The notes beneath the pieces are model-generated. The model was not told where the DNA came from and made no database searches. It saw only the letters and a list, made by a program, of their open reading frames with translations. 59,675 nt of DNA from positions 1 through 59,675 of IMG/VR virus record IMGVR_UViG_3300022752_005293. One strand, written 5' to 3'. Below, piece by piece: positions 2,733-56,021 of this stretch (position 1 is its first letter; each line of letters begins with the position of its first letter). Origin of the DNA: a virus (lineage: Duplodnaviria > Caudoviricetes). The position numbers and the translations under genes are program-made.

Positions 2733-3062
2733 ATGGCAGCAACAAAAAATTTAGCTATCGATCAGGGAACTACATTTTCAGATTTTATACTTTATAAAGA
2801 TAAAACTAAAAATGTAATAGATATAACTGGGCTTACTCCAAGAGCCAGTATGAGAAGATCATATTATAGCGCAAATGCTATTACCTTTACTACTATTATT
2901 AATAGTAATAGTGGCGGAAATGTAAATATATCCTTATCTGCTTTTCAAACTGCTAATCTCAAAATAGGTAGATATGTTTATGATGTAGAGTTATTTAATA
3001 CTAATGTAGTATATAGAATACAAGAAGGCATTATAACAGTATTTCCAGAGGTAACAAAATAA
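2733..3062 (+). CDS. Conserved virion structural protein (BppU/LtfC-like Ig-fold) preceding neck genes
   Basis: IDQGTTF...GRYVYDVEL...RIQEGIITVFPEVT pattern, position upstream of gp13. Confidence 0.6.
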   Translation: MAATKNLAIDQGTTFSDFILYKDKTKNVIDITGLTPRASMRRSYYSANAITFTTIINSNSGGNVNISLSAFQTANLKIGRYVYDVELFNTNVVYRIQEGIITVFPEVTK

Positions 3063-16787: not shown

Positions 16788-17228
16788 ATGAAATTAAGTG
16801 ATCTTCAGGAAATGTGGGCTGAGGATTGCAAGATCGATGAAGCAAATCTTGGAAGAGAATCAGCTCGCACTCCGCTACTTCATGCCAAATATATTAACTA
16901 TCTTTCTTCTACAAGACTTAATCTTAGAAAAGCAGAATCAGATTATTTAAATTGTAGAAGAAAGAAGTATCGTTATTATAGAGGAGAAATGTCGAAAAGC
17001 GAACTCGAGGAAGAGGGCTGGAATCAATGGCAAGGAACTAAACCTTTAAAAAATGAAATAGATGAGTTTCTTCAGGGAGATGCTGATTTACTTTCTTTAC
17101 AAGATAAAGTAGAATACTTTAAAACTGTTTTATATCAATTGGAAGCAATTATTAGATCATTGAATAGTAGAACTTGGGACATAAAAAATACCATCGAATT
17201 TATGAAATTTACTAATGGATTAATGTGA
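16788..17228 (+). CDS. uvsY: Recombination mediator UvsY
   Basis: LQEMWAEDCKID, PLLHAKY, YYRGE, SRTWDIKNTIEFMKF; precedes uvsW. Confidence 0.9.
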   Translation: MKLSDLQEMWAEDCKIDEANLGRESARTPLLHAKYINYLSSTRLNLRKAESDYLNCRRKKYRYYRGEMSKSELEEEGWNQWQGTKPLKNEIDEFLQGDADLLSLQDKVEYFKTVLYQLEAIIRSLNSRTWDIKNTIEFMKFTNGLM

Positions 17229-18712
17229 TGCCCGATATAACTATAAGAAAGAAAAATGAGGTTTATCTCCTCATTGATAGTGATCCCTCAATACTTCAAG
17301 AAATTTATGATTACTTTTCATTTGATGTTCCTGGGGCCAAATTTCATCCTTTGTATAGATCTAAAGTTTGGGACGGCAAAGTACATTTATTTTCAATGTT
17401 TACTAAAGAATTGTATGTTGGATTGTCAGATTATGTAAAAAAATTTGCAGAAGAAAGAGAATACATTGTTGATGAAACTAATTATAAAAAATCATATGAC
17501 TATGTTACTTTAGAAGAAGTAAAAGCTTTTTGTGAATCCTTAAATATATCATCCAAAGGACAATCTATTCAAATACGAGAGTATCAAATAGATGCAGTCT
17601 ATCAGGCAATTGTTAACGGAAGACGCTTATTACTATCGCCAACTGGTTCTGGAAAATCTCTTATTATTTACTGCTTAATACGTTGGCATGAAAAATATGG
17701 GAGACGACAACTTATACTTGTGCCTACAACAAGTCTTGTAGAACAGATGTACTCAGATTTCCAAGATTACTCAGGATTTAATGGTTGGAAAACATCTGAA
17801 AACTGTCATAGAATTTATGGTGGACATGAAAAGTCTAATTTATACAATGTTGTTATTAGTACTTGGCAGTCAATCTACAAACTTCCCAAGACATTTTTCT
17901 TCGAATTTCAAGTTATTTATGGCGATGAAGCCCATCTCTTTAAGGCAAAATCACTAACCAGCATACTTAATAAATGTACAACTGCAGCTTTTAGAATCGG
18001 AACAACCGGTACTTTAGATGGCACTAAAACTCATAGGTTGGTTCTCGAAGGATTATTTGGTTCTGTATATAAAGTTACTTCAACTAAAAAATTAATGACA
18101 GATAAAACTTTAGCAGATTTACAAATTTATAGTATTGTTTTGGAATATCCAGATGAGATTAGAAAAGCAGTAAAACATTTTGAATACCAGCAAGAAATGG
18201 ATTTTATAGTATCATATAATGAAAGAAATAAATTTATAAGAAATCTTGCATTGGATCAAAAAGGTAATACTTTGGTATTGTTTCAGTACGTAGAAAAACA
18301 TGGTAAGATTCTTCATGATATGATTTCAGATAAAGCACAAGATAGACAAGTATTTTTTGTGTATGGTGGCACTGATACAGAGCAACGAGAAATGATAAGA
18401 CAACTAACGGAAAAAGAAAATAATGCTATTATAGTAGCCTCGGTCGGGACATTTTCTACAGGGATAAATATCAAAAAATTACATAATATTATTTTTGCCT
18501 CCCCGTCTAAATCTAGAATTAGAAATCTTCAATCTATTGGTAGGGGATTAAGAACAAGTGAAGAAAAAGATAAGTGTAATCTTTATGATATAGGTGATGA
18601 TTTGTCTTGGAAATCAAAAAAGAATTATACTTTACTTCATATGATAGAAAGAATAAAGATTTATAATGATGAGCATTTTGATTACAAATTAATAAAGGTT
18701 CCTATCAAATGA
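17228..18712 (+). CDS. uvsW: DNA helicase UvsW (SF2)
   Basis: WDGK, SPTGSGKS, GDEAH, GTTGTL, FSTGINI, LQSIGRGLR. Confidence 0.95.
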   Translation: MPDITIRKKNEVYLLIDSDPSILQEIYDYFSFDVPGAKFHPLYRSKVWDGKVHLFSMFTKELYVGLSDYVKKFAEEREYIVDETNYKKSYDYVTLEEVKAFCESLNISSKGQSIQIREYQIDAVYQAIVNGRRLLLSPTGSGKSLIIYCLIRWHEKYGRRQLILVPTTSLVEQMYSDFQDYSGFNGWKTSENCHRIYGGHEKSNLYNVVISTWQSIYKLPKTFFFEFQVIYGDEAHLFKAKSLTSILNKCTTAAFRIGTTGTLDGTKTHRLVLEGLFGSVYKVTSTKKLMTDKTLADLQIYSIVLEYPDEIRKAVKHFEYQQEMDFIVSYNERNKFIRNLALDQKGNTLVLFQYVEKHGKILHDMISDKAQDRQVFFVYGGTDTEQREMIRQLTEKENNAIIVASVGTFSTGINIKKLHNIIFASPSKSRIRNLQSIGRGLRTSEEKDKCNLYDIGDDLSWKSKKNYTLLHMIERIKIYNDEHFDYKLIKVPIK

Positions 18713-19161
18713 AAGATAACTTAGTATTCCATTACAAACTACTAAAATTAATTAATGGCGAAAGTATAGTATGTTCTACCGATGATAACTGCGAAAATCT
18801 TAGAAGCAAATCTAGTATCCACGTTTGTGATCCTGTTTTAGTTATTCCTTTTAGAGTTCCTCGAGGTATGAATATTGCGGAAACATATATTATGACACCT
18901 TGGATTTCTATAAGTGAAGAAATAATATTTGAAATCCCAACAGAACAAATTATTGTAGCTGTGGATTTGAAACACAATTTTAAAGAAAATTATATAAGTT
19001 ATGTTGAAGCACAAAATAAAACTGAAGATTTAGTACAACAAGATAAAGAAGTAATGCTAAAACATCTTCTTAATAGTTTGGGGAACAATAGTGATGAAGA
19101 AATCGAAGATAGTAGCGGGGACAAACCAATCCTTGTCCCAGGATCAAGATCAGTCCATTGA
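18709..19161 (+). CDS. Conserved hypothetical protein (possible Sm-like fold) between uvsW and gp55
   Basis: YKLLKLINGESIV...DPVLV...MTPWI; ATGA-coupled; conserved T4-like position. Confidence 0.6.
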   Translation: MKDNLVFHYKLLKLINGESIVCSTDDNCENLRSKSSIHVCDPVLVIPFRVPRGMNIAETYIMTPWISISEEIIFEIPTEQIIVAVDLKHNFKENYISYVEAQNKTEDLVQQDKEVMLKHLLNSLGNNSDEEIEDSSGDKPILVPGSRSVH

Positions 19162-19708
19162 AATACCTCGTTCATCTCATTATGTAGATAACAAGAAATT
19201 TCTACAGGCATTAATAGATTATAAAGTTTTAGTAGATCGGGCCCTTGTAGAAGGGAACCCGCAACCACAGGTTCCAAACTATATAGGTGAATGTTTTATA
19301 AAGATTGCTACGCATTTATCTTATAAGTCTAATTTCATAAATTATACGTTTAAAGATGACATGATAAGTGATGGAATAGAAAATTGTTTAACTGCTGTTG
19401 CTAAATTTGATCCATCTAGATCATCTAATCCTTTTGCATACTATACTCAAATAATTTATTTTGCTTTTATTCGCAGAATTCAAAAAGAAAAAAAGCAACA
19501 GGCCACCAAATATAGAATGATAGAAAATATTGATATTGATCAGATAATATCCCAAGAGCATGGTAATGAAGAATTTAATAATCAATTTATGGAATATGTA
19601 AAAAAACAACTTGATCAAATCGATATAGAAAAACGGGTAATTCAATTCCCGAAAAAGAACAAATTAGCTGAAGAAAATTTGAATAATGCTCTTGATTTAG
19701 ATGAATAG
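19091..19708 (+). CDS. gp55: Late-transcription sigma factor gp55
   Basis: HYVDNKKF, YIGECFIKIATHLSYKSNFINYT, DMISDGIENC, NPFAYYTQIIYFAFIRRIQKEKKQ; exact start uncertain. Confidence 0.95.
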   Translation: MMKKSKIVAGTNQSLSQDQDQSIEIPRSSHYVDNKKFLQALIDYKVLVDRALVEGNPQPQVPNYIGECFIKIATHLSYKSNFINYTFKDDMISDGIENCLTAVAKFDPSRSSNPFAYYTQIIYFAFIRRIQKEKKQQATKYRMIENIDIDQIISQEHGNEEFNNQFMEYVKKQLDQIDIEKRVIQFPKKNKLAEENLNNALDLDE

Positions 19709-19746: not shown

Positions 19747-20592
19747 ATGTCTAAATTAAAAGTAAGTGAATTATTTTATAGTATTCAAGGTGAGGGGCGT
19801 TATATGGGCGTTCCTAGTATATTTTTAAGAACGTTTGGTTGTAATTTCACTTGTGATGGTTTTGGTATGCTTAAGGGGGAAAAATCAAATGAACGAAATA
19901 TCATTGCCATAAATGCGAATCATTACAAAGATTATAAATCTTTGCCGCTTGTTACTACAGGTTGCGATAGTTATGCTAGTTGGGATGTTCGGTTTAAGCA
20001 TCTTAGCCCTCTGCTTACTATTGATCGCATTGTTGACGCCATTCTACGTATGCTACCTCGTGGTAGGTGGGCAAGTGAGCATCTTGTTATCACAGGGGGT
20101 GAACCGCTTCTTGGCTGGCAAAAATCATACCCTACGCTTTTATCGCACTCGGGCATGGTCGATCTACAAGAACTTACGTTCGAGACCAACGGAACACAAG
20201 AACTAATACCTGAATTTTCTGAGTACTTAAAGATACACTGGCGCAAAGGTTGGGATCGTCTTACTTTTAGTATTAGTCCCAAGCTAAGTGTTAGCGGCGA
20301 AAAATGGGATGATGCTATTAAACCAGAAATTATTCTTCAGTATGAAGAACATGGTTATGCCTATTTAAAATTCGTTGTAGCCAATGAAATCGATGTTGCT
20401 GAAGCAGAAATGGCAGTTGAGTGCTACAGAGATCATGGATTTAAGGGTCCAGTATATTTAATGCCTGTCGGTGGGGTAGAATCGGTATATGCTATGAACA
20501 ATAAGAATGTAGCATTGATGGCAATGAAAAAAGGATGGCGTTATTCTGATAGGCTTCAGGTGCCATTGTTTAAAAATGAATGGGGAACATAA
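19747..20592 (+). CDS. queE: 7-carboxy-7-deazaguanine synthase (radical SAM)
   Basis: ELFYSIQGEG, FLRTFGCNFTC...GCDS, VITGGEPLL, FETNGT, SISPKL, RLQV; next to folE. Confidence 0.9.
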   Translation: MSKLKVSELFYSIQGEGRYMGVPSIFLRTFGCNFTCDGFGMLKGEKSNERNIIAINANHYKDYKSLPLVTTGCDSYASWDVRFKHLSPLLTIDRIVDAILRMLPRGRWASEHLVITGGEPLLGWQKSYPTLLSHSGMVDLQELTFETNGTQELIPEFSEYLKIHWRKGWDRLTFSISPKLSVSGEKWDDAIKPEIILQYEEHGYAYLKFVVANEIDVAEAEMAVECYRDHGFKGPVYLMPVGGVESVYAMNNKNVALMAMKKGWRYSDRLQVPLFKNEWGT

Positions 20593-20792
20593 TGAAAATT
20601 ATAGATAGAGACGATTTTAAAATGTATGTTCTTATAGGTGAATGCAAGGCACCCAACGAATTAAAAATTATTCATTTTATAAGAGAAGAACTTGACAAAG
20701 ATGAAAATATTATAATTAGAAATACATATGAATTTTTTATGAAAAAAAATGAGATAAAAAAATTAGCGAAAGTATTGAATGACTACAAATAA
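20592..20792 (+). CDS. Small hypothetical protein
   Basis: ATG overlaps queE stop; 66 aa; no recognisable motif. Confidence 0.5.
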   Translation: MKIIDRDDFKMYVLIGECKAPNELKIIHFIREELDKDENIIIRNTYEFFMKKNEIKKLAKVLNDYK

Positions 20793-21528
20793 ATTAGTTG
20801 AAGAAGCGCCTTATCATCCTGGTTACGAATGTGCAGTATTTAGTGATCCCGTGGGTCGTCCCATGAGTCTAGTGATTCGAGAAAGATTAAAGGAAAGCAA
20901 TTCTAGATTTTTTGCCAATGACAATATCTCCGAATTTATTGAAAACGAAGATGAAATAGATGCGCTTGTTGAAGAAGTAGCAGAAAAATTTCAAGGTGTT
21001 CTTCACTCATTGGTGATTGACACTCACAATGATCACAACACGCAGGATACTGCACGTCGTGTGGCTAAGATGTTTGTGAAAGAAACTTTCAAAGGTCGTT
21101 ATGCTAGTCCACCCAAGGTAACTGCATTTCCGAATGTAACTGAATACGATGAGTTGTATGTTACTGGCCCAATTACAATTAGGAGTACCTGTGCCCATCA
21201 TTTTCAAAACATTGTTGGTAAAGCCTATATTGGCGTATTTCCGGGGAAGAATGTTATCGGTCTTAGTAAATTTAATCGTATCACGGATTGGATCGCCTCT
21301 CGTCCGCAGATTCAGGAAGAAATGACTGTTCAGATTGCTGATGCTATTGAAAGTGAAACGCAGGCCGATGGTGTTGCTGTATTAGTGCAAGCTGAACATC
21401 ATTGCATGACTCACAGAGGAGTTAAAGAACATGAGTCGGACATGACTACCTCTGTCATGAGAGGGGCATTTAGAAATGATCCTCATCTTAAACAAGAATT
21501 TTTCAGTATTATTCATAAAATGAAATGA
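20779..21528 (+). CDS. folE: GTP cyclohydrolase I
   Basis: TARRVAKM, RSTCAHHF, IGLSKFNR, RPQIQE, EHHCMTHRGV, MTTSVMRGAF. Confidence 0.96.
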   Translation: MTTNKLVEEAPYHPGYECAVFSDPVGRPMSLVIRERLKESNSRFFANDNISEFIENEDEIDALVEEVAEKFQGVLHSLVIDTHNDHNTQDTARRVAKMFVKETFKGRYASPPKVTAFPNVTEYDELYVTGPITIRSTCAHHFQNIVGKAYIGVFPGKNVIGLSKFNRITDWIASRPQIQEEMTVQIADAIESETQADGVAVLVQAEHHCMTHRGVKEHESDMTTSVMRGAFRNDPHLKQEFFSIIHKMK

Positions 21529-21875
21529 CAGCTTATCAGTTATTAATAGCAAATACTACTTTTTTAATTTTTATTTTAATAGTCTATAGACATAGCACAT
21601 TTGCAGCAATAAAAGATTGTTATGCTATGTGGTTTAAAAAAGAGTATTGGACCGATTATAATATAGTGGAATTTTTAAGCTGGGCAGCAAAGGCAATTAT
21701 TATTATTCCCGGGTTAATATTTGGTATAAGTATTTGGTGGTTATATTTTTTAACTTTATTTACAAGTTTGACTTTAATATGGGCGAGCAATAAAAAGTTG
21801 TTGCCGACACTTGTTGGGTTTAATACAATATGGGTTTGGATAAGTAGTATGGTTTTATCTAAAAATTTGTTTTAA
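21525..21875 (+). CDS. Small multi-pass membrane protein, unknown function
   Basis: Three to four hydrophobic stretches; ATGA-coupled to folE. Confidence 0.6.
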   Translation: MTAYQLLIANTTFLIFILIVYRHSTFAAIKDCYAMWFKKEYWTDYNIVEFLSWAAKAIIIIPGLIFGISIWWLYFLTLFTSLTLIWASNKKLLPTLVGFNTIWVWISSMVLSKNLF

Positions 21876-21876
21876 T

Positions 21877-23247
21877 ATGAAAATCTTTAGTAAAAGAATA
21901 GCATTTTGTATTAGTGATCAACATACTATTCCTCATGGAGGCCTCGGGCAATTTGCAAAAAGCTTTGTTGAGACTTTCACTCCAATGGGATTTAAGATAG
22001 ATATTATTTGTGATAAATCTCCTTCTAATTTGGATTTTAAAAGAAGCCTTATTGAATCTGGTGCTTCGTTTATTTACCCATCAGAGCCTATTACTTATAG
22101 TAAACATAGTAAAATCTTTATGTTTGAGGATTCTTACAATTTTGAAAAGATGATTAATTTTAGAGATGCTATGATGCAGGCTCTAAATACTAATTTATAC
22201 GACACTATCATTTGTAATACTTTAGAATCATTTCCTGCAGTGCATTCTTTAAGTTTGCAGAAATCAATACAAGTTATTTACTATACTCATAATGAAAGTA
22301 TGGTTTTCCTAGATGATAGAACTTGGAGAAATGAATTTTCTCATTCATTTAATAATTTTTTCAATGTTCTTCTTTCTTGCAGTAATATTCAAGTAGGCAC
22401 TCAAACAGAAAGAAATAAAATGGAGTTATTAAACAATAGAATACCTGCTTATCTATTACCCATTCCTATGACAGAAAAATCTTTATTGAATAAGCATATC
22501 AAATCTCGTGAAGGTGTTCTATGGATCGGTAGATGGGAACCTAGAAAAAATCCTGAAGAATTTATAAGAGTGATACAAGAAACGAAACTACCAGCAAAGG
22601 TAATTACCAACACCAATGGTGCCAAAAAATTTGAACAAGCATTAACAGAGATTTGCGCAGATTTTCAAATTAAAATAGGCGTCTACGGTAAGGAAAAAGT
22701 TGACTTTCTCACATCTGCCAGAGTAGCATATAATCCTGCAATTAGAGAATCTTTTGGTTTGGCATTTTATGAAACTGCTGGCCATATGCCAACCGTCGTT
22801 CTAGAAAATATGAGTTGGATAAAGAATTTTCCGTCTGAATACTATTATTCCACCACTAAAAAAGATGCATCAGAAAAAATCAAAACTTTATATGAAATAA
22901 TGGTGGATGGAACATATCATTATGAAAAACATATACTTGATAAAATAATTCAAAATAATCAAGAAGGCATACAAAGATGGGTGGATATGTTTGATAATTT
23001 TATACCTTCTAAATCTGATAGTGATAGGGCAAGAATAAATCAAGAGCGAACCGTTTGTTACAAAGATTTTATAAAAGGCTTAAACAGAAAAGATTTATCT
23101 ATAGATGATATCAAATCTGTATTGACAAACAAGCATAAGTATAATACAATTTATACTAATGACAATACTTATCTCTCTAAAGACAAAAACTTTATACCAA
23201 ACGAAAAGACAAACGAGTCTGCAAGTCTCGAGGATTTATTTGCATGA
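21877..23247 (+). CDS. GT-B (GT4-like) glycosyltransferase with C-terminal SLEDLFA peptide
   Basis: HGGLGQF near N-terminus, LWIGRWEPRKNPE, ESFGLAFYE (Ex7E) motif. Confidence 0.8.
   Translation: MKIFSKRIAFCISDQHTIPHGGLGQFAKSFVETFTPMGFKIDIICDKSPSNLDFKRSLIESGASFIYPSEPITYSKHSKIFMFEDSYNFEKMINFRDAMMQALNTNLYDTIICNTLESFPAVHSLSLQKSIQVIYYTHNESMVFLDDRTWRNEFSHSFNNFFNVLLSCSNIQVGTQTERNKMELLNNRIPAYLLPIPMTEKSLLNKHIKSREGVLWIGRWEPRKNPEEFIRVIQETKLPAKVITNTNGAKKFEQALTEICADFQIKIGVYGKEKVDFLTSARVAYNPAIRESFGLAFYETAGHMPTVVLENMSWIKNFPSEYYYSTTKKDASEKIKTLYEIMVDGTYHYEKHILDKIIQNNQEGIQRWVDMFDNFIPSKSDSDRARINQERTVCYKDFIKGLNRKDLSIDDIKSVLTNKHKYNTIYTNDNTYLSKDKNFIPNEKTNESASLEDLFA
23122..23150 (+). promoter_or_regulatory. Internal sigma70-type promoter for the DpdA-like gene
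   Basis: TTGACA-17 nt-TACAAT inside the 3' end of the GT gene, ~95 nt before the next ATG. Confidence 0.55.
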
Positions 23248-24530
23248 GTAAAATATTTGAGTATTCTATTTCCGGGCCTGCGTACTTACGCTTAGGAGCT
23301 GAACAATGTAATGATCCAGAAACATTGGAAATGATAAAAAGTATGATTTTGAAGACATGTCATAATCAAAATAATCATACACTTTCTTTACTATATAATG
23401 GATTTACGGAAAAGAATTTTGGTGAAAAATTACAAAAGTATAGACCCGCCATTAAACAGATTCATGCTGACTCCGGCGGATTGCAAATTATTACTAGGGG
23501 ATTAAAAAATACTCCAGAGCTGAGAGAAAAGGTTTATACTAACCAGGGCACATATGCGGATATTGGTATGGCTTTCGATGAGATTCCGGTTAAAGCAACT
23601 CAAGACGGCAGATCATCTAAGATTGATACGAAGCGTAGATATTTTGATAGAGAAAATTTTGAAGATTATGCTACACAAACTGGCAAAAATGTTAGAGCAC
23701 AAATAGAGAAATTTGCTGAACTAAAATCTAACTGTAGACCTTTTGTGATTATGCATGGAGCATCTCACGATACATATCAGCATTGGGCAGAAACAATTCT
23801 TCGAGAAGTTTCAGAACCATTGCATGATAAGATTGGTGGTGTAGCCATGGGATCAGCGGCCCTAGGCATGGGTCAGTTAGAAGATGTAAAGAGAGCATTT
23901 TATGTTACCCTTATGCCTTTCAGTAGACCTTTTCATCTACATGTATTAGGTGTCGGCGCATTACGACGTATGTTGCCTTATCTTTTATTTAGCCAAACAG
24001 GATTGTATGATGGAATTGATATCTCATATGATTCTACCACACATTCTATGTCACTTGATAATGGTTTATTCTATTTTTCTCACTATAAGAAGTCGCCAGG
24101 ATCTGCATATGGAGGTACATCAGTTAAGATGGGGAGAGAATACTCCAACATCTATAGAACAGTTACAGAAGAAATCAATTTAGTATGCGGGACAGAGTAT
24201 GCCCCTGAAGAATATCATAAATTAATGAACAAACAAGTTACTGCTTATATAGAAGAAGGTGGCAAATTCATTGATATTATGCGAGCAAGACTTGCCTTTA
24301 TTCTTACCAATATTCACAATTTTACTAAAGATGTTTCAGAACTTACGCAATCAAAAGAACAATTTTTAAAATTTGCAAGAGAAAAAGATTGCGAAAATGA
24401 ATACGCTACATTATTTGATGTTAAAAATTTAGATGATTTTTTACACTGGGAAAAACACGTAGGTTGTCATATGGATTCAGAATCTGTTGCAGATAAACCA
24501 CCTTCATCACTAGAGGAATTATTCGCATGA
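23244..24530 (+). CDS. dpdA: DpdA-like DNA-guanine transglycosylase (TGT fold)
   Basis: HADSGGLQ (TGT DSGGxQ), AFDEIP, GGVAMG, HLHVLGVG, SYDSTTH; context of folE/queD/queE. Confidence 0.78.
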   Translation: MSKIFEYSISGPAYLRLGAEQCNDPETLEMIKSMILKTCHNQNNHTLSLLYNGFTEKNFGEKLQKYRPAIKQIHADSGGLQIITRGLKNTPELREKVYTNQGTYADIGMAFDEIPVKATQDGRSSKIDTKRRYFDRENFEDYATQTGKNVRAQIEKFAELKSNCRPFVIMHGASHDTYQHWAETILREVSEPLHDKIGGVAMGSAALGMGQLEDVKRAFYVTLMPFSRPFHLHVLGVGALRRMLPYLLFSQTGLYDGIDISYDSTTHSMSLDNGLFYFSHYKKSPGSAYGGTSVKMGREYSNIYRTVTEEINLVCGTEYAPEEYHKLMNKQVTAYIEEGGKFIDIMRARLAFILTNIHNFTKDVSELTQSKEQFLKFAREKDCENEYATLFDVKNLDDFLHWEKHVGCHMDSESVADKPPSSLEELFA

Positions 24531-24907
24531 TAGTTAAACAAGACGTTCGTCCACGCACTGAAACATTTATAAAAGTGCGAACAGAATTTGAGGGGTATCA
24601 TAGATATCCTATTGCAAGTCAAATTGATTCCCGTATTGCCTTTCTTGAAAATGAACATAGGCATATGTTTAAGGTTGAGGTCAAGATTTCTGTATCTCAC
24701 CTTGATAGAGAATTGGAATTCTTTTTAGTTAAATGGGCATTGCAAGATTTTATCAAAGGCGGCGATATGAATCACAAGTCTTGTGAAATGATTGCCATGG
24801 ATTTATTAAATGGTTTTTTAAGACCTTCATTTGGTGAAAGATATTACGAGATTGTAGTATCAGAAGATGGTGAGTCTGATGGCATTGTTGAATACTTTCC
24901 GGGATAA
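24527..24907 (+). CDS. QueD/PTPS paralogue with LxxxHRHxF motif (DpdL-like putative CDG decarboxylase)
   Basis: FEGYHRYP, FLENEHRHMF, DRELEFF, SCEMIA, VSEDGE. Confidence 0.72.
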   Translation: MIVKQDVRPRTETFIKVRTEFEGYHRYPIASQIDSRIAFLENEHRHMFKVEVKISVSHLDRELEFFLVKWALQDFIKGGDMNHKSCEMIAMDLLNGFLRPSFGERYYEIVVSEDGESDGIVEYFPG

Positions 24908-24909
24908 TT

Positions 24910-26079
24910 ATGCGTAAATTGTGGTATTGCGGATTAGAGCCGTATGAGGGCAGATACACTTTACAGCTTCAGCGATGGAGCGAGGCGGTATTTAAGCGAC
25001 GGGGTATTAATTACGAAGTAATTCATGGTGAATTATTAGATACATCTAAGTCTATCGTAACAGGTCAAGTATTAGATGCACATGGTCGCAGTTATTATTC
25101 TTTGACACAAATGGCTAAACTTGTAGCGAAGATGAAAGCGGGTGAAGTAACTTGGGAAGACGGAATCTTTTTTGAGGATATGTTTACTCCTGGCATGGAA
25201 GCATTGCCCTACATAATGGATCAAACAACTACAGAGTTTAGGCCTCAAATTTGGGTTAGATGTTTAGCGCAGACAATTGATCCTGATGACTTTCTGCACG
25301 TATGGGATATGCAAGACTGGATGCGCAATTATGAACATATGATAAATCATTTTGTAACAGGTGTATTAGCATCAAATGAGGAAATGGTTGCTCATATGAA
25401 AATTGCAGGCTGGAATGTTCCGATCTATAATATTTCTGGTCTAGCTTTTGGTAAAGAGGAAGTGCAATCCCGAGTGCCTGTTAGAAAAGATTTTTATGAT
25501 AGGAAAAGGCGTGTTTGCTTTGCTGCAAGATTCGATCAGGAAAAACAACCTGGGTTTTTCATGGATTTAGTCGAGAGAGTAACAGATTATACTAATACTG
25601 AATTCTGTGTATTATCCGGTGGACCATTACGTAGTAATGATGATGGGTATTTAGAACGTGCTAGAAATTTAGAAGCTCAAGGTAAATTAAAAATTTATGA
25701 GAATCTAAAGAAGAATGAGTATTATGAAATTCTAGCAGATAGCAGAGTTTTATTTAATTGTGCACTGCAGGATTGGGTATCAAATACAGCTTCGGAAGCA
25801 GATGCACTGGGAACGAATTGTTTATATCCTGCCTATAGAAGTTTTCCAGAATCTTTTGCTAATGATTCAGAATGTTTATATATTCCTTGGTCAATGGAAG
25901 ATGCTGAGGCAAAGTTGGTTCATTTACTTAATAATCCAAGAACAAAACTTGGTAAACTGTCAGATTGGACTAATGGCACTATTGATCGTTGTATAGATAT
26001 TATGAATAATCGGACAAACGAACAATGGTATAGAGGCAATAATAGGTATCGCAATCATGTCCCAGAATCTAAATTCTAA
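24910..26079 (+). CDS. GT-B glycosyltransferase-like protein
   Basis: VCFAARFDQEKQP, LFNCALQDWVSNTASEADALG, LYPAYRSFPE resemble the GT-B nucleotide-binding domain. Confidence 0.7.
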   Translation: MRKLWYCGLEPYEGRYTLQLQRWSEAVFKRRGINYEVIHGELLDTSKSIVTGQVLDAHGRSYYSLTQMAKLVAKMKAGEVTWEDGIFFEDMFTPGMEALPYIMDQTTTEFRPQIWVRCLAQTIDPDDFLHVWDMQDWMRNYEHMINHFVTGVLASNEEMVAHMKIAGWNVPIYNISGLAFGKEEVQSRVPVRKDFYDRKRRVCFAARFDQEKQPGFFMDLVERVTDYTNTEFCVLSGGPLRSNDDGYLERARNLEAQGKLKIYENLKKNEYYEILADSRVLFNCALQDWVSNTASEADALGTNCLYPAYRSFPESFANDSECLYIPWSMEDAEAKLVHLLNNPRTKLGKLSDWTNGTIDRCIDIMNNRTNEQWYRGNNRYRNHVPESKF

Positions 26080-27049
26080 AAATATAGTAGTCACAGGTGC
26101 TGCTGGTTATATCGGTGGTATTACTTGTATTGAATTAAAACGTAAAGATTATAACGTCTTTGGAATAGATAGAAGACATACTCCTCATCTTGATAATTAC
26201 TATGATGAGTTTTATAACGGTGATTTTACTGATTACGAATCTTTTTTACTTATTAAAAGAACAAAGCCTGCAGCTATTATTCATTGTGCCGGTACAAGTT
26301 TAGTTGGTCCTAGTTTTGATATACCTGGAATTTATTTTAATAATAATGTCGCTAGAACCAATTTATTACTTAATTTTATTAAAGAAGAAATTCCTAGTAC
26401 AAAATTTATATTTAGTAGTAGTGCTGCTGTTTATGGCAATTGGTCTAATTATCCATATAGGGAATTCAACGATACTATTCCTGTATCACCGTATGGTGAA
26501 TCCAAATTAATGGTAGAAAAAATTTTAAACTGGTATAGACAAGCTTATAATTTAAACTATGTTTCATTGAGATATTTTAATGCTTGCGGAGCAGATCAAG
26601 AATCTTTACATGGACAAGAACCGGGATCTTCCCATATATTTGCTAAATTGTTTGATTCAGCTTTAAACGATACACCTTTTACTCTAAATGGCGCGAACTA
26701 TTGTACTAAAGATAATACATGTATAAGAGATTATATTCATGTTTCGGATATAGCAGATGCACATATAAAATGTATAGATAGTGATACATCAGGTATATAT
26801 AATTTAGGTACATTTAAAAGCACATCTAATCTAGAATGTTTAGATTATGTTGAACAGTGTCTAAATAAAGAAATTGTAGTTAATGTGGTACCTGCAAGAA
26901 AAGGTGACCCTGCTATTCTTATAGCAGATCCTAGCAAATTTAGATTAACTACAGGTTGGACAGCATGGAGAACTATGCCAATGGTTGTAAGCCATTTGAA
27001 GGAATGGTATCAATCTAATACTTTTAAAAATTATAATAAGCGGTCTTAA
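26057..27049 (+). CDS. galE: UDP-glucose 4-epimerase
   Basis: VTGAAGYIG, FSSSAAVYG, SPYGESK, LRYFNACGA, TCIRDYIHV, RKGDPAILIAD. Confidence 0.9.
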   Translation: MSQNLNSKNIVVTGAAGYIGGITCIELKRKDYNVFGIDRRHTPHLDNYYDEFYNGDFTDYESFLLIKRTKPAAIIHCAGTSLVGPSFDIPGIYFNNNVARTNLLLNFIKEEIPSTKFIFSSSAAVYGNWSNYPYREFNDTIPVSPYGESKLMVEKILNWYRQAYNLNYVSLRYFNACGADQESLHGQEPGSSHIFAKLFDSALNDTPFTLNGANYCTKDNTCIRDYIHVSDIADAHIKCIDSDTSGIYNLGTFKSTSNLECLDYVEQCLNKEIVVNVVPARKGDPAILIADPSKFRLTTGWTAWRTMPMVVSHLKEWYQSNTFKNYNKRS

Positions 27050-27108: not shown

Positions 27109-27615
27109 ATGGCTTTTATAAATTTACCGCATCCCTACAAATACGTTAGTACAAAAGAATACCATGATGCTTTCCCATGCGCTTATAGACAATGGAGAGC
27201 AGATAGTCACTGTAATATGATTCATGGTTATAGTTTTAGTATGAAGTTTTATTTCGGGACAGATAACTTAGATGTTCGTAACTGGGCAGCTGATTATGGT
27301 GGTCTCAAAGAACTAAAGAAAATTCTTGAGAATCAATTTGATCACACTTTATTAGTTGCTGAAGATGACCCTGAATTAGAAACATTTAGATTATTACAAG
27401 AAAAGAAAATGGCCAAGCTAACTATTCTACCTCGTTTAGGATGTGAAGGTTTGGCTGATATGCTTTATAAGTATGTCAATGGTGTTTATATACCGGATAT
27501 GTGGGGCCCAGGTGAAGCAGAAAGACTATGGTGTTTTAGAGTTGAAGTCAGAGAAACACAATCTAATATGGCTTACAGAGAAGGCCATAGACACTGGAAC
27601 GAGGTATTATTATAA
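27109..27615 (+). CDS. queD: 6-carboxy-5,6,7,8-tetrahydropterin synthase
   Basis: SHCNMIHGYS, DYGGLKELK, FDHTLL, GCEGLA, VEVRET. Confidence 0.88.
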   Translation: MAFINLPHPYKYVSTKEYHDAFPCAYRQWRADSHCNMIHGYSFSMKFYFGTDNLDVRNWAADYGGLKELKKILENQFDHTLLVAEDDPELETFRLLQEKKMAKLTILPRLGCEGLADMLYKYVNGVYIPDMWGPGEAERLWCFRVEVRETQSNMAYREGHRHWNEVLL

Positions 27616-27617
27616 CA

Positions 27618-28199
27618 ATGCTTAAAGTTTATAAAAATCTTATTTCGCAGAACACCGCAGATTCTATCTATCATTCTTTGATGTCATTCATTATAAATGA
27701 TAGCCAACATTATTTTGAGTTTAGCAATTCTGCTACAAATAATAAGTCTTGGGGCTACATGAATTTACCTGAAACTTATCTAGAAATAGATAGAATAAAA
27801 AGTTTCGTAGAAAAAGATTTTGGTGACGAATATGAATTTACTCACACTTATTCTAGAATATACCCTGCTGGGGGTATTTTAAATCCTCATATAGATAGAG
27901 AGGGTCTGGATTTAACATTGACACTTAATGTTCATAGTGATGTAAATAATCCATGGCCAATTCTTTTTTCTAAAAAAACATTTGACACGGTATTAAATGA
28001 TATACATATATACACTGTCGGTGACTCTGAATCATACGAATTGTTTAAAGAATATACTAAAGATTTTGAAAGTGTAATTTTAAACGAAGGCGATGGTGCT
28101 TGCTGTACTAGAGATGTACCTCATTGGAGAGAACCCTTCAATGTAAAATTTGAGGGAGAGCATTATGGGCAAGTATTTTATCACTGGAAACGTAAATGA
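27618..28199 (+). CDS. 2OG-Fe(II) oxygenase superfamily protein
   Basis: YSRIY...LNPHIDR (HxD), GDG, PHWREPF, QVFYHW. Confidence 0.75.
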   Translation: MLKVYKNLISQNTADSIYHSLMSFIINDSQHYFEFSNSATNNKSWGYMNLPETYLEIDRIKSFVEKDFGDEYEFTHTYSRIYPAGGILNPHIDREGLDLTLTLNVHSDVNNPWPILFSKKTFDTVLNDIHIYTVGDSESYELFKEYTKDFESVILNEGDGACCTRDVPHWREPFNVKFEGEHYGQVFYHWKRK

Positions 28200-28433: not shown

Positions 28434-29099
28434 ATGATAAAAAATAAATACTATATCTGGTATTTTAATCTTATAGAAAAAGCAAAAAAAAGAAATAATT
28501 TACAAGAATATGAAACACATCATATAATACCTAGATTTGCAGGTGGTTTAGATGATGATAATAATTTAGTACGTTTATCCTACAGAGAGCATTACATTTG
28601 TCATAAGATACTAACTAAATTATACGCGGGGCCTTTAAAGGCAAAAGCATTTTTGTCATTACATAGAATGTGTTTTGCTAAAAAGTATGGTTCACCTTCT
28701 AAATTATATGAACAATTTAGAAAAGAATTTATTAAGCATTTAAAAGAATATCATCCTTCTAGATTAAATCCTGAATCTTGGTCTCAAACTTGTAAAATAA
28801 ATGCTAAAAAACAATGGCAAAATAACGAAGAAAGAAGAAAAAACTTTTCTGATAAAATGAAATCTCTTTGGAAAGAGGGAAAAATTACGCCAGAAATGTC
28901 AAGAAAAAATGGTAAACATAATAAGTTTGGTATTTTAAATCACAAAACTATAGAAATAGAATATAAAGGAAAAATATATTATGGTTATAGAGAATTAGAA
29001 GAAGCGACAGGAGTAACTGGATATCTATATATAAAATATTACAAACATGGGATAGATCCTGAATCTAGAATAGGTAAGAATGGCCCTGTTCCTAAATAA
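28434..29099 (+). mobile_element. Free-standing HNH homing endonuclease
   Basis: YETHHIIPRFAGGLDDDNNLVRLSYREHYICHKIL HNH motif plus basic C-terminal DNA-binding region; inserted upstream of gp47. Confidence 0.85.
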
Positions 29100-35908: not shown

Positions 35909-36664
35909 ATGTTTGTACTAGATAATTTTGTTGTAATGGAATCAATGTATGGTAAATTTATAATCCCAAGACATTATACTCCAGGTCCCCCTACTCCGGA
36001 TCCAGCATCTACTATGCTTCGTACTGGAAAAACACATATTGAGGACGAGGTGCAAAATATTTTATATCTCGTTTCTCAATTACCAGACAATTCTATAGTT
36101 GTAGATGGTGGTGCAAATATGGGATTTTTTACTATCCCTGTTGCCCAAGCTTTGAAGAATAAAGGTGGCAAAATTATTTCTTTTGAACCGCAAAGGCAAA
36201 TTTATTATGCCCTTTGCGGTTCTTGTGCCTTAAATGAATTAGAAAATGTCTTTGTTCAAAATTTAGGTTTAGGTGAATCACAATCTATTGCTGAAGTATC
36301 AGATATTGATTACAGTGATAAAGTTGATTTTGGTATGGTCACTTTATCAGATAATGTCACTAAGAAAGAGCATGCTTTCTTAAGCAACAAAACTGTAAAA
36401 GTAATAACTTTAGACTCTATGGAGCTACCTAGTTTAGAATTTTTAAAGTTAGATGTGGAGGGGTATGAATGCCAAGCATTAAGGGGCGGATTAAAAACAT
36501 TAGAAAAATTTAGACCTATTATATGGATTGAGTATAACATGGCGGGCGAGAATAATATAAAAGAAGTTCTAAAGAGTGTGCAAAAATACAAATTTTTAAA
36601 AGTAGATTGGCAGAATATGCTTTGCATACCAGAAGAACTATGCAGTAGGTATAATATTAAATGA
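35909..36664 (+). CDS. FkbM-family SAM-dependent methyltransferase
   Basis: VDGGANMGFF, SFEPQ, FLKLDVEGYE. Confidence 0.88.
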   Translation: MFVLDNFVVMESMYGKFIIPRHYTPGPPTPDPASTMLRTGKTHIEDEVQNILYLVSQLPDNSIVVDGGANMGFFTIPVAQALKNKGGKIISFEPQRQIYYALCGSCALNELENVFVQNLGLGESQSIAEVSDIDYSDKVDFGMVTLSDNVTKKEHAFLSNKTVKVITLDSMELPSLEFLKLDVEGYECQALRGGLKTLEKFRPIIWIEYNMAGENNIKEVLKSVQKYKFLKVDWQNMLCIPEELCSRYNIK

Positions 36665-37446
36665 CCTCTTTAGTTCTTCATACGCATACTGGGCTCGGAG
36701 ATCATTTAATAACTAATGGTATGACTCATGCATTTGCTGAAAGATATGATAAGGTATACGTGATACATTTAAAAATGTTTACCGAATCTATTCAAGCTTT
36801 ATACAAGGGCTTTGATAAAATAGAAACAGTAGCTTTTCCAGATAAGGATATTAATTTATATCAAAGAGATAAAATTGCAGAATTAGCCAAAGACACTAAC
36901 TCAGAATTGATAAGTATCGCCGATCCATTTTTATATTATCCGAAAAGATTAGTATTAAATAAAGATAATGAACCGGTATTTATACATACTGCAATTAATT
37001 TTGATAGACAGTTTTATGAACTGGCAGGCATGCATTTTTCAATTAGATATGATATGTGTAAAATACCAAATAGCACTCAAAGATCAAAAGAAATACTCAT
37101 GGATCTAACTAAAGGACAAGATTTTAGATTAATTCATAATACGAGTAGTCAATCTAGTACTGGGTATCCTGTTAATATAGATATGGATTCACCTTTTACA
37201 AACCTGCCTACAATAGAAATTAGACCTGGTATTTCTAATAATATTTTTGATTTTGTGGATTTGATAAAAAATGCAAAGGAAATCCATACGGTAGGCAGTT
37301 TTTTTCATAATTTAGTAGATTGTATGACGGATAAAACGTCTGCTAGACTAGTATTTCATAATATTATGATGAAACACGAAACACAAATTAATTGCTTTTG
37401 GAATAATAATAGATGGTTGCAGATAGATTATAACAATAAATATTAA
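36661..37446 (+). CDS. Hypothetical glycosyltransferase-like protein
   Basis: HTHTGLGDHL, FDRQFY, IKNAKEIHTVGSFF resemble GT9/GT-B-like signatures; sugar island context. Confidence 0.5.
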   Translation: MTSLVLHTHTGLGDHLITNGMTHAFAERYDKVYVIHLKMFTESIQALYKGFDKIETVAFPDKDINLYQRDKIAELAKDTNSELISIADPFLYYPKRLVLNKDNEPVFIHTAINFDRQFYELAGMHFSIRYDMCKIPNSTQRSKEILMDLTKGQDFRLIHNTSSQSSTGYPVNIDMDSPFTNLPTIEIRPGISNNIFDFVDLIKNAKEIHTVGSFFHNLVDCMTDKTSARLVFHNIMMKHETQINCFWNNNRWLQIDYNNKY

Positions 37447-37460
37447 TTTAATGGATTATT

Positions 37461-43046: not shown

Positions 43047-43047
43047 T

Positions 43048-44367: not shown

Positions 44368-44374
44368 GGATTTT

Positions 44375-46885: not shown

Positions 46886-46887
46886 TT

Positions 46888-52900: not shown

Positions 52901-53557
52901 ATGCAAATAAGTAAAGAAACAATTGAAGTTTTGAAAAATTTTGCAAGTATTAATAGTAATATTCTTATTCGCAAGGGAAAAAATCTTGCTACTATTAGTA
53001 CGGCAAAAAATATTTTTGCCAAAGCCAATGTAGCTGAAGATTTTCCTATAGAAGTTCCAATATATGATTTAAATTCCTTATTGGCATTATTAACTTTAAT
53101 GGAAAATCAAAATGTAGAATTTGGGGATAAATCTTTAACTATTTCCAAAGATGGCGGAAAATTTGAATATTTTTATTCTAATGCAGGTGTAATAGTAGCA
53201 GCACCAGATAAATCAATTGAATTAGATAATCATTTTCAGTTTAAATTAACGGCTGAGGATGTTCAAATGATTATAAAGGCTGCAGCAATCACATCCGCTC
53301 CCACAATTTCAGTAACTTGTAAGCATCAACAAGTAGTACTTACTATTGGTGACAAGAAAAATGATACTGCTAATACTTATAAGAAAACTATTGGACCTGG
53401 GCTAGAAGATTTTGAATGTCATATGGCAGTGGAAAATTTTAAGATTATACCTGATGCTTATACTGTAACTATTTCTAAAAAGAAATTTATGCATTTTAAG
53501 CATGAAACAAAATCCGTTGAATATTTCATTGCAATGGAACCAGATTCGGTGGTGTAA
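52901..53557 (+). CDS. gp45: DNA polymerase sliding clamp gp45
   Basis: MQISKETIEVLKNFASINSNIL, IYDLNSLL, NFKIIPDAYTV, YFIAME. Confidence 0.94.
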   Translation: MQISKETIEVLKNFASINSNILIRKGKNLATISTAKNIFAKANVAEDFPIEVPIYDLNSLLALLTLMENQNVEFGDKSLTISKDGGKFEYFYSNAGVIVAAPDKSIELDNHFQFKLTAEDVQMIIKAAAITSAPTISVTCKHQQVVLTIGDKKNDTANTYKKTIGPGLEDFECHMAVENFKIIPDAYTVTISKKKFMHFKHETKSVEYFIAMEPDSVV

Positions 53558-54331: not shown

Positions 54332-55273
54332 ATGGAAGTTCGTGAAGATCAATTTTTGTGGGTTGAAAGATATCGTCCTCGTAAATTAACTGATTGTATT
54401 TTGCCCGCTGATCAGAAAAAAATTTTTGAGGAAATGATAAGTAAAGGTGAGATTCAAAATATGTTATTGTGTGGTTCAGCTGGTGTAGGCAAAACCACTG
54501 TAGCTAGGGCATTATGTGAGGAATTAGAAACAGATTATATAGTAATTAATGGTTCAGAAGAATCTGGAATTGATATTCTTAGAACTAAGATCAAACAGTT
54601 TGCATCCACAGTATCATTCAGTGGCAAAACAAAAGTTGTAATTTTAGATGAAGCAGATTATCTAAATCCCAATTCTACTCAACCTGCATTAAGAGCCTTT
54701 ATAGAGGAGTTCTCGGCTAATTGCAGATTTATTTTTACTTGTAACTTTAAAAATAGAATTATTCCTCCTCTTCATTCTAGATGTACTGTTATTGAATTTA
54801 AACTAGCAAAAGATGATAAGCCAAAGCTAGCTGCCAAGTTCTTTAAAAGAGTAAACGAAATTCTAAAACTAGAACAGATTGAATTTGATTCTAAAGTTGT
54901 AGCAAAAGTTATCGAGAAGCATTTTCCAGATTATCGTCGTATTTTAAATGAAATACAGCGTTATTCAGTATCTGGAAAAATTGATGAGGGCATTTTAGTT
55001 AATATGAGTGAAGCCAATATGGCTGATCTTTTTGCTTCTCTTAAAGACAAAGACTGGAAAAGAATGCGAAATTGGGTTGTAAATAATCTTGATAATGATC
55101 CTACAACAGTTATAAGAAAAGTATACGATAATTTAACAGATCAAGTTGTTCAAGTGCCTCAATTAATACTAATATTGGCAGATTATCAATATAAAAGTGC
55201 TTTTTGTGCTGATCAAGAAATAAATTTAGTAGCATGTCTTACTGAAATAATGGCATCTGTAGAATTTAAATGA
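54332..55273 (+). CDS. gp44: Clamp loader large subunit gp44
   Basis: LWVERYRP, GSAGVGKTT, VILDEAD, FIFTCN, PLHSRC, FPDYRR. Confidence 0.96.
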   Translation: MEVREDQFLWVERYRPRKLTDCILPADQKKIFEEMISKGEIQNMLLCGSAGVGKTTVARALCEELETDYIVINGSEESGIDILRTKIKQFASTVSFSGKTKVVILDEADYLNPNSTQPALRAFIEEFSANCRFIFTCNFKNRIIPPLHSRCTVIEFKLAKDDKPKLAAKFFKRVNEILKLEQIEFDSKVVAKVIEKHFPDYRRILNEIQRYSVSGKIDEGILVNMSEANMADLFASLKDKDWKRMRNWVVNNLDNDPTTVIRKVYDNLTDQVVQVPQLILILADYQYKSAFCADQEINLVACLTEIMASVEFK

Positions 55274-55539
55274 AGCTTCGTGTTGCAGGAATAAATTATA
55301 GTATAGAATATGTATCCTCAGAAGATTTAAATGGATTACTTGGTATAGCAGATTTTAATAATCAAAAAATTAAAATTAATAACAATGCTACAGAATCAAC
55401 ACAACATATAGCAATTATTCATGAAATAATTCATATTTTAGATAGATCGTATAATATCAAATTGACTGAGGATCAAGTTATTTATCTTGCACAAGCTATT
55501 GTAGCTTTGGTAAACGAAAATCCGGAGTTTAAAATATGA
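55270..55539 (+). CDS. Small HExxH zincin-like hypothetical protein
   Basis: IIHEIIH motif followed by TEDQV; ATGA-coupled. Confidence 0.6.
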   Translation: MKLRVAGINYSIEYVSSEDLNGLLGIADFNNQKIKINNNATESTQHIAIIHEIIHILDRSYNIKLTEDQVIYLAQAIVALVNENPEFKI

Positions 55540-56021
55540 TAAAGCCTACAAGAAATAACACATATTCTATACAAGAAAATAAATTATTTGGAGATCCGGT
55601 AGTTAAATATGTGGAAGAAAAATATGATACACCCAAAATTTCACCTTTTGATTTTATAAATGCTATTCATCACACTAAAGAAAATTTAATAGTTGATGAT
55701 TGGTCTGAGAAACAATACAATTCTTTTATTGTAAACAGAGGATTATCGTACGGACAAGATACGATTATACCTGCAAATGAAATGAATTCTAGACCACACT
55801 TGGATAAATTACTTCAATTTTCATTTTTAATAAATATTATTGGATCTAAAAAAAGATTCAATAAATGGTTAAAAGCTGATAAAATTGAAGCGATAGATAT
55901 TGTTCGAGAATACTATGGATATAGCAAAGAAAAAGCTCGTCAAGTACTTCCGCTTCTTAGTGATGAACAAATTGAAACAATAAAAACAAGAATGTATAAA
56001 GGTGGCAGAAATGGCGGATGA
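55536..56021 (+). CDS. gp62: Clamp loader small subunit gp62
   Basis: SPFDFINAI, YNSFIVNRGLS, ANEMN, EYYGYSKEKA, KGG end. Confidence 0.92.
   Translation: MIKPTRNNTYSIQENKLFGDPVVKYVEEKYDTPKISPFDFINAIHHTKENLIVDDWSEKQYNSFIVNRGLSYGQDTIIPANEMNSRPHLDKLLQFSFLINIIGSKKRFNKWLKADKIEAIDIVREYYGYSKEKARQVLPLLSDEQIETIKTRMYKGGRNGG

Follow-up and report, generated by a model that had tools for sequence, protein, structure and literature searches.

The viral contig IMGVR_UViG_3300022752_005293 (Caudoviricetes), whose whole stretch of 59,675 nucleotides is referred to here as the window, carries all its long open reading frames (ORFs) on the plus strand, with a GC content of about 0.27-0.39. Two adjacent genes, joined by an ATGA overlap of stop and start, encode a glycosyltransferase (GT1, 456 residues) and a homologue of the DpdA2 family of DNA 7-deazaguanine transglycosylases (DpdA, 428 residues; Table 1). 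A preliminary description of this DNA had pointed out that these otherwise unrelated proteins end alike, and the ORF translations agree, with GT1 ending in NESASLEDLFA and DpdA in KPPSSLEELFA, each directly before its stop codon. We consider it reasonably probable that the window belongs to a T4-like myophage with an operon for 7-deazaguanine DNA modification, and that GT1 and DpdA are recruited by the phage sliding clamp, gp45, with both enzymes modifying DNA.

Table 1. Features of the window and, in the last three rows, of related genomes (positions refer to the window unless a genome is named)
Feature	Position	Strand	Basis or remark
UvsY	16788-17228	+	Pfam/profile match
UvsW	17228-18712	+	Pfam/profile match
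gp55 late sigma factor	19094-19708	+	ends in NALDLDE
QueE	19747-20592	+	tail VPLFKNEWGT identical to annotated BUCT-ZZ01 QueE; Radical_SAM match weak
FolE	20779-21528	+	Pfam GTP_cyclohydroI, E 6.2e-51
116-residue hydrophobic protein between FolE and GT1	21525-21875	+	no Pfam or PHROG match
GT1, GT-B, GT4-like retaining-type glycosyltransferase	21877..23247	+	AlphaFold2 model and Foldseek
GT1 linker, residues 436-449	23182..23223	+	variable length and sequence
GT1 tail SLEDLFA, residues 450-456	23224..23244	+	putative gp45-binding peptide
DpdA, DpdA2-family homologue, tRNA-guanine transglycosylase fold	23244..24530	+	fold and sequence homology
DpdA linker, residues about 411-421	24474..24506	+	entropy 2-3.2 bits at 413-421, indels
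DpdA tail SLEELFA, residues 422-428	24507..24527	+	putative gp45-binding peptide
DpdL-type QueD paralogue	24527-24907	+	phrog_17812, E 1.2e-20
DpdL motif L40-ENEHRHM-F48 (LENEHRHMF)	24644-24670		fits LxxxHRHxF
GT2, second GT-B glycosyltransferase, without tail	24910-26079	+	Glycos_transf_1, 26.0 bits against a cut-off of 26.4
NAD-dependent sugar epimerase/dehydratase	26057-27049	+	Pfam Epimerase, E 7.3e-47
QueD/PTPS	27109-27615	+	Pfam PTPS, E 7e-15
gp45 sliding clamp	52901..53557	+	Pfam gp45-slide_C, E 1.7e-9, 38.2 bits against a cut-off of 25
Clamp-loader region	54332..56021		phrog_225 'clamp loader', E 5.6e-40
gp44 clamp loader	54332-55273	+	Pfam AAA, DNA_pol3_delta2, Gp44_lid
gp62 clamp loader	55536-56021	+	PHROG profile match
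RegA	56011-56439	+	PHROG profile match
gp26-like hub, BUCT-ZZ01	L113:7844-8554		phrog_150, E 2e-54
gp26-like hub, ACP17	L126:12633-13394		phrog_150, E 3e-51
gp26-like hub, G002	74428-75120	-	homologous to the BUCT-ZZ01 and ACP17 ORFs (E 9e-43 and 1e-23)

When the tail is written as the pattern L[DE]x[LFM]F followed by 0-2 residues at the C-terminus, it is found in 2 of the 103 ORFs of at least 50 residues on both strands of the window, namely GT1 and DpdA, and 200 shuffles of the last 30 residues of all window ORFs returned a mean of 0.015 hits and a maximum of 1. At least five other glycosyltransferase-like ORFs of the window, including GT2, a GT10 fucosyltransferase, a GT-D-like, an Anp1-like and a GT2-family protein, lack the tail. 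Three extra stop-to-stop segments of 53-75 residues with hydrophobic ends, which came up in a looser scan, are implausible as genes. Each tail follows a linker that is flexible, as the preliminary description had it; the column statistics of both proteins show an indel-rich stretch of high entropy and then an invariant or near-invariant L..LF. GT1 residues 442-450 combine high entropy and indels with column occupancies of 15-96%, and the predicted local distance difference test score (pLDDT) of the AlphaFold2 model drops to 61 and 47 in the final two 10-residue blocks of GT1 (below 50 at residues 447-449) and to 77 and 56 in those of DpdA.

The resemblance of the tails had been ascribed to selection on the protein rather than to duplication of DNA, on the ground that the codons differ. 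Taken alone this ground is weak, because the final 11 codons of the genes, stop included, agree at 22 of 33 bases, as would suit a functionless remnant of a local duplication or a chance likeness. The case for selection on the protein is made instead by the homologues, in which the tails are conserved. Among the best 120 of 751 DpdA matches (93-40% identity) 114 end in the motif, the exceptions being two truncated fragments and the tails TLVDLFS, DTMELF, DTLELF and SLGEFFFA; among the best 120 of 922 GT1 matches (100-47% identity) the motif ends 106, and the 14 exceptions have other tails such as GLNLFEGL, LSLFDGWN and NLFDFD. The 48 listed GT1 matches that were aligned (alignment A1) all have F455, and 96% of them have L454, and L423 and F427 of DpdA are invariant in an alignment (A3) of 54 sequences, comprising 53 of the 120 listed matches and the window protein. 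Across 78 related IMG/VR loci, GT1 and DpdA are the only plus-strand ORFs of at least 80 residues to end in xL[DE]x[LFM]F; both are tailed in 68 loci and one in 10, of which at least seven are cut at the locus end. A tail that persists down to about 40% identity in DpdA and 47% in GT1, behind a linker that varies, where shuffling predicts only 0.015-0.08 hits per proteome, already contradicts chance or duplication as its origin, and we give that explanation next to no credence.

The same motif ends the replicative DNA polymerase. In each of the four long relatives with a PolB match, gp43 ends in KPQATLEGLFS or in LFG (a fifth record, 59% complete, gave no PolB match). The complete relative G002 (202,665 bp, with terminal repeats) has 451 ORFs, of which 3 finish with the motif, these being GT1, DpdA and gp43. 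Beyond this clade the polymerase and DpdA tails are TLDDFFS and SLDSFFD in Synechococcus phage BUCT-ZZ01, whose GT1 ends in SLEDFFND, SLDDLFE and TLDELFE in ACP17, SLESLFG and SLEELFG in BUDD, and SLEDLFGW and SLDDLFG in Moby. The motif stands at the polymerase C-terminus in 15 of 15 PolB frames, that is, in every T4-like genome examined. The preliminary description had named beforehand what would speak against its reading, namely a lack of clamp binding, tails not conserved among homologues, or a clearly different clamp motif on the phage's gp43. As far as computation reaches, none of these was encountered: the tails are conserved in the listed matches above, the likeness to gp43 is seen in the four long relatives and in BUCT-ZZ01, ACP17, BUDD and Moby, and the complex model described below passed its controls.

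The tails of DpdA and GT1 also vary together with that of the polymerase. None of 120 permutations scored higher by BLOSUM62 than the pairing of polymerase and DpdA within the same genome, whose score by identity was attained in 4 of the 120, in a test of five genomes, one per lineage, from which G001, G003 and G004 were left out as near-duplicates of G002, and pf16, KVP40 and nt-1 for their degenerate or missing DpdA tails, the inclusion of which would weaken the result. That polymerase, DpdA and GT1 of BUCT-ZZ01 have all switched from LF to FF suggests co-evolution with a single pocket, as do the matching final residues of polymerase and DpdA in ACP17 and BUDD. A distant GT1 homologue of BUDD, which lies outside any deazaguanine cluster, has no tail. 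Among the polymerases we also observed that G009 (524,565 bp) contains two PolB frames of 907 and 895 residues with near-identical tails, about 490 kb apart (L191 and L194), possibly through concatenation or duplication in the assembly of this record.

The clamp that such tails would bind is encoded in the window, as had been stated, and gp45 has 3416 representative homologues at E<=0.001; the clamp-loader genes gp44 and gp62 lie downstream, with a small ORF between them. Modelling of a complex of the gp45 trimer with GT1 residues 376-456, a check proposed in the preliminary description, gave ipSAE values of 0.61, 0.59 and 0.61 with all controls at or below 0.01; 58 of 80 solved complexes and 2 of 110 mismatched pairs attain the mark used for this score. 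The alignments supplied held 102 rows for gp45 (alignment A2, made of 101 of 150 listed representatives with a length of 208-235 residues and the window protein) and 47 rows for GT1, and the runs share at least 36% of their contacts. On the GT1 side the predicted contacts are residues 447-452 and 454-455 (ESASLE and LF), and on the gp45 side residues 32, 35-39, 102, 104, 106-107, 175-176, 179, 194-196 and 209-214, so the tail is predicted to dock on gp45.

According to the available text of PMC2988020, T4 gp43, gp33 and gp55 bind gp45 via highly similar, interchangeable acidic-hydrophobic C-termini, and the gp43 C-terminus of T4 and RB69 is the experimentally defined clamp-binding peptide, which docks in a hydrophobic pocket on the C-face of gp45; the gp33 and gp55 peptide is called the LDFL motif in the corresponding portion of PMC9690074. 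The tails of GT1 and DpdA share with these peptides their extreme C-terminal position, their acidic-hydrophobic character and their placement on a variable linker, whereas the clients differ, being a polymerase and transcription factors in T4 and RB69 and a DNA base-exchange enzyme and a glycosyltransferase here. We regard the tails as clamp-type peptides and consider clamp tethering well supported in silico, by the sequences and by the complex model. The clamp-client peptide is of a known kind and the base-exchange enzyme and glycosyltransferase are new as its bearers; among the papers listed by a full-text search, partly judged by titles and abstracts, there was no report of a clamp motif on DpdA or another phage DNA-modification enzyme. 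A parallel exists in DNMT1 and PCNA, where a short clamp-binding motif (the PIP-box) brings a DNA-modifying enzyme to new DNA (PMC9690074, available portion), although the systems differ in clamp, motif and chemistry (methyl transfer as against base exchange and glycosylation) and are not homologous.

The tail could conceivably be a signal of another sort, one common to gp43, DpdA, GT1 and a gp26-like baseplate hub and read by a chaperone, a protease or a membrane assembly site, or serving mutual association. The hub ends in GLETFFA in BUCT-ZZ01, GLDDFFV in ACP17 and GLQNFFV in G002, and because a structural protein has so similar a tail, the tail type may not mean a DNA enzyme. The strict motif is likewise not common to every expected clamp client, since gp55, which ends in NALDLDE in the window and in NPLDLDD, IDLLT or VDFFP in relatives, has a tail that is acidic-hydrophobic and related to the motif but not identical with it. 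Such a signal nevertheless seems to us quite improbable, as the motif is the polymerase C-terminus in all 15 PolB frames and its T4/RB69 equivalent is the clamp-binding peptide (PMC2988020, available text), and as the complex model would place the tail residues in the gp45 pocket while the controls stay at or below 0.01. No homologue of the hub was found in the window, where ORF 3062-3805 was ruled out as a candidate (BLASTP E 2.0, no tblastn match).

Along with the hub and gp55, several further observations weigh against clamp tethering as proposed here. The 59.7-kb assembly, which is the window itself, contains no gp43 and no open frame at its end that is a polymerase, for which reason gp43 of relatives was used, and the comparison rests on genomes in which DpdA shares 70-82% identity with the window protein. 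The GT1 partner has a pLDDT of only about 36-39 in the complex, which makes its fold there uncertain, and because the structure of an RB69 clamp-peptide complex has been solved (PMC2988020, available text), the passing score may show likeness or the memory of the model rather than binding by this copy. The association of tail and DpdA also has its gaps, since in pf16 the polymerase ends in SLEDFFS and DpdA in a degenerate TLDLMCA, and in KVP40 and nt-1 the polymerase ends in TLESFFG and DpdA has no such tail. DpdA2 of nt-1 and VH7D inserts bases in Escherichia coli without a phage clamp, as the available text of PMC10516641 reports, and because the tail-less nt-1 enzyme works there, the tail is not needed for catalysis and would be a targeting device.

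The identification of DpdA as a transglycosylase, made in the preliminary description, is borne out by fold and by homology. Its AlphaFold2 model has a pLDDT of 91.2, and the top 16 Foldseek matches in the PDB are all tRNA-guanine transglycosylases (TGT; best E 4.2e-9, template modelling scores 0.52-0.61). By tblastn DpdA matches the phage nt-1 ORF between folE and exsB/queC with 35.5% identity over residues 4-273 (E 3e-44); this ORF is AGN30173.2, presumably the characterised nt-1 DpdA2, which has the accession YP_008125322 in the literature. The same search matched 71 phage records, all of T4-like groups, in which some of the ORFs are annotated as queuine tRNA-ribosyltransferase, and the protein matches phrog_10773 at E 5.5e-95. 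Invariant in the 54 aligned sequences are D76-S-G-G, F111-D112-E113 and Y262-D263-S-T, which are the presumed TGT catalytic motifs. A comparison of folds was needed to reach this assignment because the routes by sequence failed, Pfam giving no match for DpdA and neither phmmer nor the 54-sequence profile finding anything among PDB sequences. The Pfam TGT model also misses the DpdA orthologue in G002, so its silence on the jumbo records described below is uninformative, and a nucleotide search of a phage collection gave one weak match only.

The DpdA2 subfamily was defined in phage nt-1, whose enzyme inserts preQ0 into DNA (PMC6884629 and PMC10516641, available portions). According to the same portion of PMC10516641, DpdA2 modifies less than 0.1% of G, insertion efficiency is very different between DpdA subfamilies, and insertion is treated as a free post-replication event. 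The window DpdA resembles the nt-1/VH7D enzymes in its sequence homology to that of nt-1, where the gene likewise adjoins folE and que genes. It differs from those of nt-1 and KVP40, which are tail-less and accompanied by QueC, ArcS or QueF pathways, in having a tail and in standing with DpdL and two glycosyltransferases, with QueC found in none of three complete relatives.

GT1, described beforehand as a GT4-like enzyme, keeps that assignment. Its AlphaFold2 model, built with 48 homologues, has a mean pLDDT of 90.5 and shows a catalytic GT-B body (residues ~1-373), an extra domain (~380-435), the disordered linker and the tail; an Atlas search with residues 374-440, covering the extra domain, gave no usable match. 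The top Foldseek matches in the PDB belong to GT4, with sucrose-phosphate synthase 6kih (E 2.2e-11) followed by BshA, MshA and GlgM, and the matches to 6kih, 3mbo, 3c4q and 6tvp lie at E values of about 1e-10 to 2e-11. All 48 aligned sequences keep E291 and E299, and we presume this E-x7-E in the C-terminal domain to be the GT4 signature. No PHROG match was obtained for GT1, precomputed PF00534 assignments exist for 10 of the 120 listed homologues, and sequence kinship between GT1 and GT2 is not detectable (E 0.09).

GT1 and DpdA are embedded in genes for the synthesis of 7-deazaguanine, running from QueE to QueD and including a 70-residue ORF between QueE and FolE (Table 1). The ends of FolE and the 116-residue protein, of GT1 and DpdA, and of DpdA and DpdL abut or overlap, and GT2 begins three bases after DpdL, an arrangement that points to co-expression. 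The motif LxxxHRHxF, which the QueD paralogue fits, replaces the QueD motif CxxxHGH in DpdL, a proposed decarboxylase of 7-carboxy-7-deazaguanine (CDG; PMC10516641, available text). Searches of three complete relatives gave no match to QueC (0 of 3) and none to the ThyA/thymidylate-synthase/hydroxymethylase family (0 of 3). With the DpdL signature and no QueC in these relatives, the inserted base would probably be CDG or the DpdL product, 7-deazaguanine, rather than preQ0; with neither QueC nor the hydroxymethylase family there, deazaguanine is the only evident pathway to a non-canonical base.

The composition of the cluster varies between lineages. GT2 adjoins DpdA in the clade of the window, in BUCT-ZZ01, in ACP17 (E 8e-12) and in BUDD (E 8e-17). 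The DpdL systems of the phiST/ACP17 type described in PMC10516641 are like that of the window in having FolE, QueD, QueE, DpdA and a QueD paralogue with LxxxHRHxF and in lacking QueC; phiST differs in its DpdA3, and neither glycosyltransferase partners nor a clamp tail were found mentioned in the available portion of that paper. The same portion reports that ACP17 DpdA together with DpdL yielded no product in E. coli; this would agree with a requirement for phage partners but does not prove one.

Some further observations were made in and near these clusters. GT2 homologues are annotated only as hypothetical (L002:7272-8300 and L003:1809-2966), and an insertion of about 1 kb separates GT1 from DpdA in three relatives (L018, L021 and L022). 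In BUCT-ZZ01 an ORF annotated as xanthine-guanine phosphoribosyltransferase lies between QueE and QueD (L001:2748-3209) and hints at a route from base to nucleotide alongside DpdA. Beside QueD in the window is a 193-residue ORF (27618-28199) matching a PHROG labelled ferrochelatase (E 5e-18), and downstream of the cluster is a homing-endonuclease-like ORF (28434-29099; phrog_655, E 3.7e-31). Between the recombination genes and gp45 lies a 17-kb sugar/glycan island (35909-52594), none of whose proteins has the tail. It encodes an FkbM methyltransferase, GDP-mannose 4,6-dehydratase, several epimerases and two DegT aminotransferases, as well as a GT10 fucosyltransferase, a GT-D-like ORF, an HpcH aldolase, a short-chain dehydrogenase/reductase, a dehydroquinate-synthase-like ORF, a thiamine-pyrophosphate enzyme and a GT2-family ORF.

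The preliminary description went on from the tails to propose that GT1 acts on DNA together with DpdA as one machine. The clamp-type peptide stands in silico; the joint machine we infer, as what would most simply account for a polymerase-type tail on a catalytically intact glycosyltransferase within a deazaguanine operon, and several points tell against the part assigned to GT1. The Pfam models Glycos_transf_1 and Glyco_transf_4 each score 16.4 bits with GT1, below their cut-offs of 26.4 and 28.5. No DNA glucosyltransferase of T4 is among the Foldseek matches listed for GT1, whose structural neighbours act on small molecules and glycans. The glycosyltransferase that accompanies DpdA and DpdL in ACP17 and BUDD is GT2, not GT1. 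Neither dDG nor dCDG offers an ordinary hydroxyl acceptor to a glycosyltransferase. Both bases are named in PMC10516641 (available text).

The T4 alpha- and beta-glucosyltransferases have a GT-B fold and, to our knowledge, no clamp tail. They are comparable in that they glycosylate a modified base, hydroxymethylcytosine, after replication, and different in depending on the hydroxymethylcytosine route, for which a hydroxymethylase-family gene was found in none of the three complete relatives here. Among the papers listed by a literature search, none reports a glycosylated deazaguanine, as judged by titles and abstracts.

The jumbo clade, with records of 335-525 kb, bears on the same point. Its polymerases end in TFDDLFSFG or in LFSLA and its GT1 proteins in GLSLFEGL, GLGLFELV, INLFDFA, ESLFSW or EELFAW, so that polymerase and GT1 have both shifted to a longer style of tail, and its GT1 cluster contains GT2, FolE, QueD, QueE and an epimerase. 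DpdA2 was found with the A3 profile in 0 of 5 of these records, despite the tailed GT1, a result that again speaks against a joint action of the two enzymes. Two ORFs adjoining the jumbo GT1 were ruled out as DpdA (hhalign probabilities 8% and 0.3%). Near the GT1 cluster we also observed a 305-residue NUMOD3-containing ORF that ends in ALFSTLFELT (L136:10754-11671) and a 192-residue ORF without Pfam match that ends in STFLDLFEIG (L132:11647-12225).

Both tails might bind gp45 and place GT1 at the site of replication for something other than the glycosylation of DNA, where it might glycosylate a free deazaguanine or pterin-type precursor channelled to DpdA, modify a replisome protein, or itself be a non-DNA partner of DpdA. 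The closest solved folds of GT1 are indeed small-molecule enzymes, among them the cyanobacterial tetrahydrobiopterin glucosyltransferase at Foldseek ranks 31 and 34, its operon contains FolE and PTPS-type enzymes, the bases in question lack an ordinary hydroxyl, and the jumbo clade keeps GT1 with FolE, QueD and QueE where DpdA2 was not detected. A tether to the clamp is, on the other hand, sensible only for work on or at DNA and would gain a soluble small-molecule enzyme little; moreover, the polymerase-type tail is on GT1 and on neither GT2 nor the epimerase of the same operon, and an extra domain of about 55 residues precedes it. On balance we think a role of GT1 at the replication site other than glycosylating DNA unlikely, and we keep to the reading in which GT1 glycosylates DNA, with both GT1 and DpdA acting on clamp-bound DNA.

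Under that reading, gp45 clamps loaded on, or left on, replicating phage DNA would recruit DpdA through its tail, and DpdA would put a 7-deazaguanine in place of guanine, probably CDG as made by QueE or what DpdL makes of it. The clamps would also recruit GT1, which would attach a sugar to the DNA, most plausibly at the newly inserted base or beside it; both base and sugar are identified by inference. More tentatively, and with rather more doubt than confidence, several T4-like lineages could be making a new glycosylated 7-deazaguanine with enzymes that ride the gp45 clamp, namely the freshwater clade of the window, BUCT-ZZ01 and, in part, ACP17, BUDD and the jumbo clade. In these phages DpdA would exchange G for the QueE/DpdL-derived base right behind the fork, and GT1 would transfer the sugar either by an unusual C-, N- or acyl-glycoside chemistry or onto a new hydroxylated deazaguanine, with GT2 and the epimerase/dehydratase supplying or extending the sugar.

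A clamp-type tail on DpdA offers a concrete mechanism, recruitment to clamp-marked new DNA, by which a phage may modify a large share of its genome during fast replication, and would make these enzymes the phage counterpart of DNMT1 and PCNA. It would give the gp45 'tool-belt' clients outside replication, ligation and late transcription. If true, clamp tethering would explain both the modification of less than 0.1% of G by tail-less DpdA2 and the null result with ACP17 in E. coli, which has no gp45 (PMC10516641, available text). GT1, GT2 and the epimerase become candidates for a new sugar-bearing deazaguanine modification, which, if real, would matter for how phages evade restriction and CRISPR and for artefacts that arise when environmental phage DNA is sequenced. 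The tails are widespread and can be tested in cultured phages, and since the whole module is present in cultured BUCT-ZZ01, a phage of Synechococcus elongatus PCC 7942, the idea is directly testable there.

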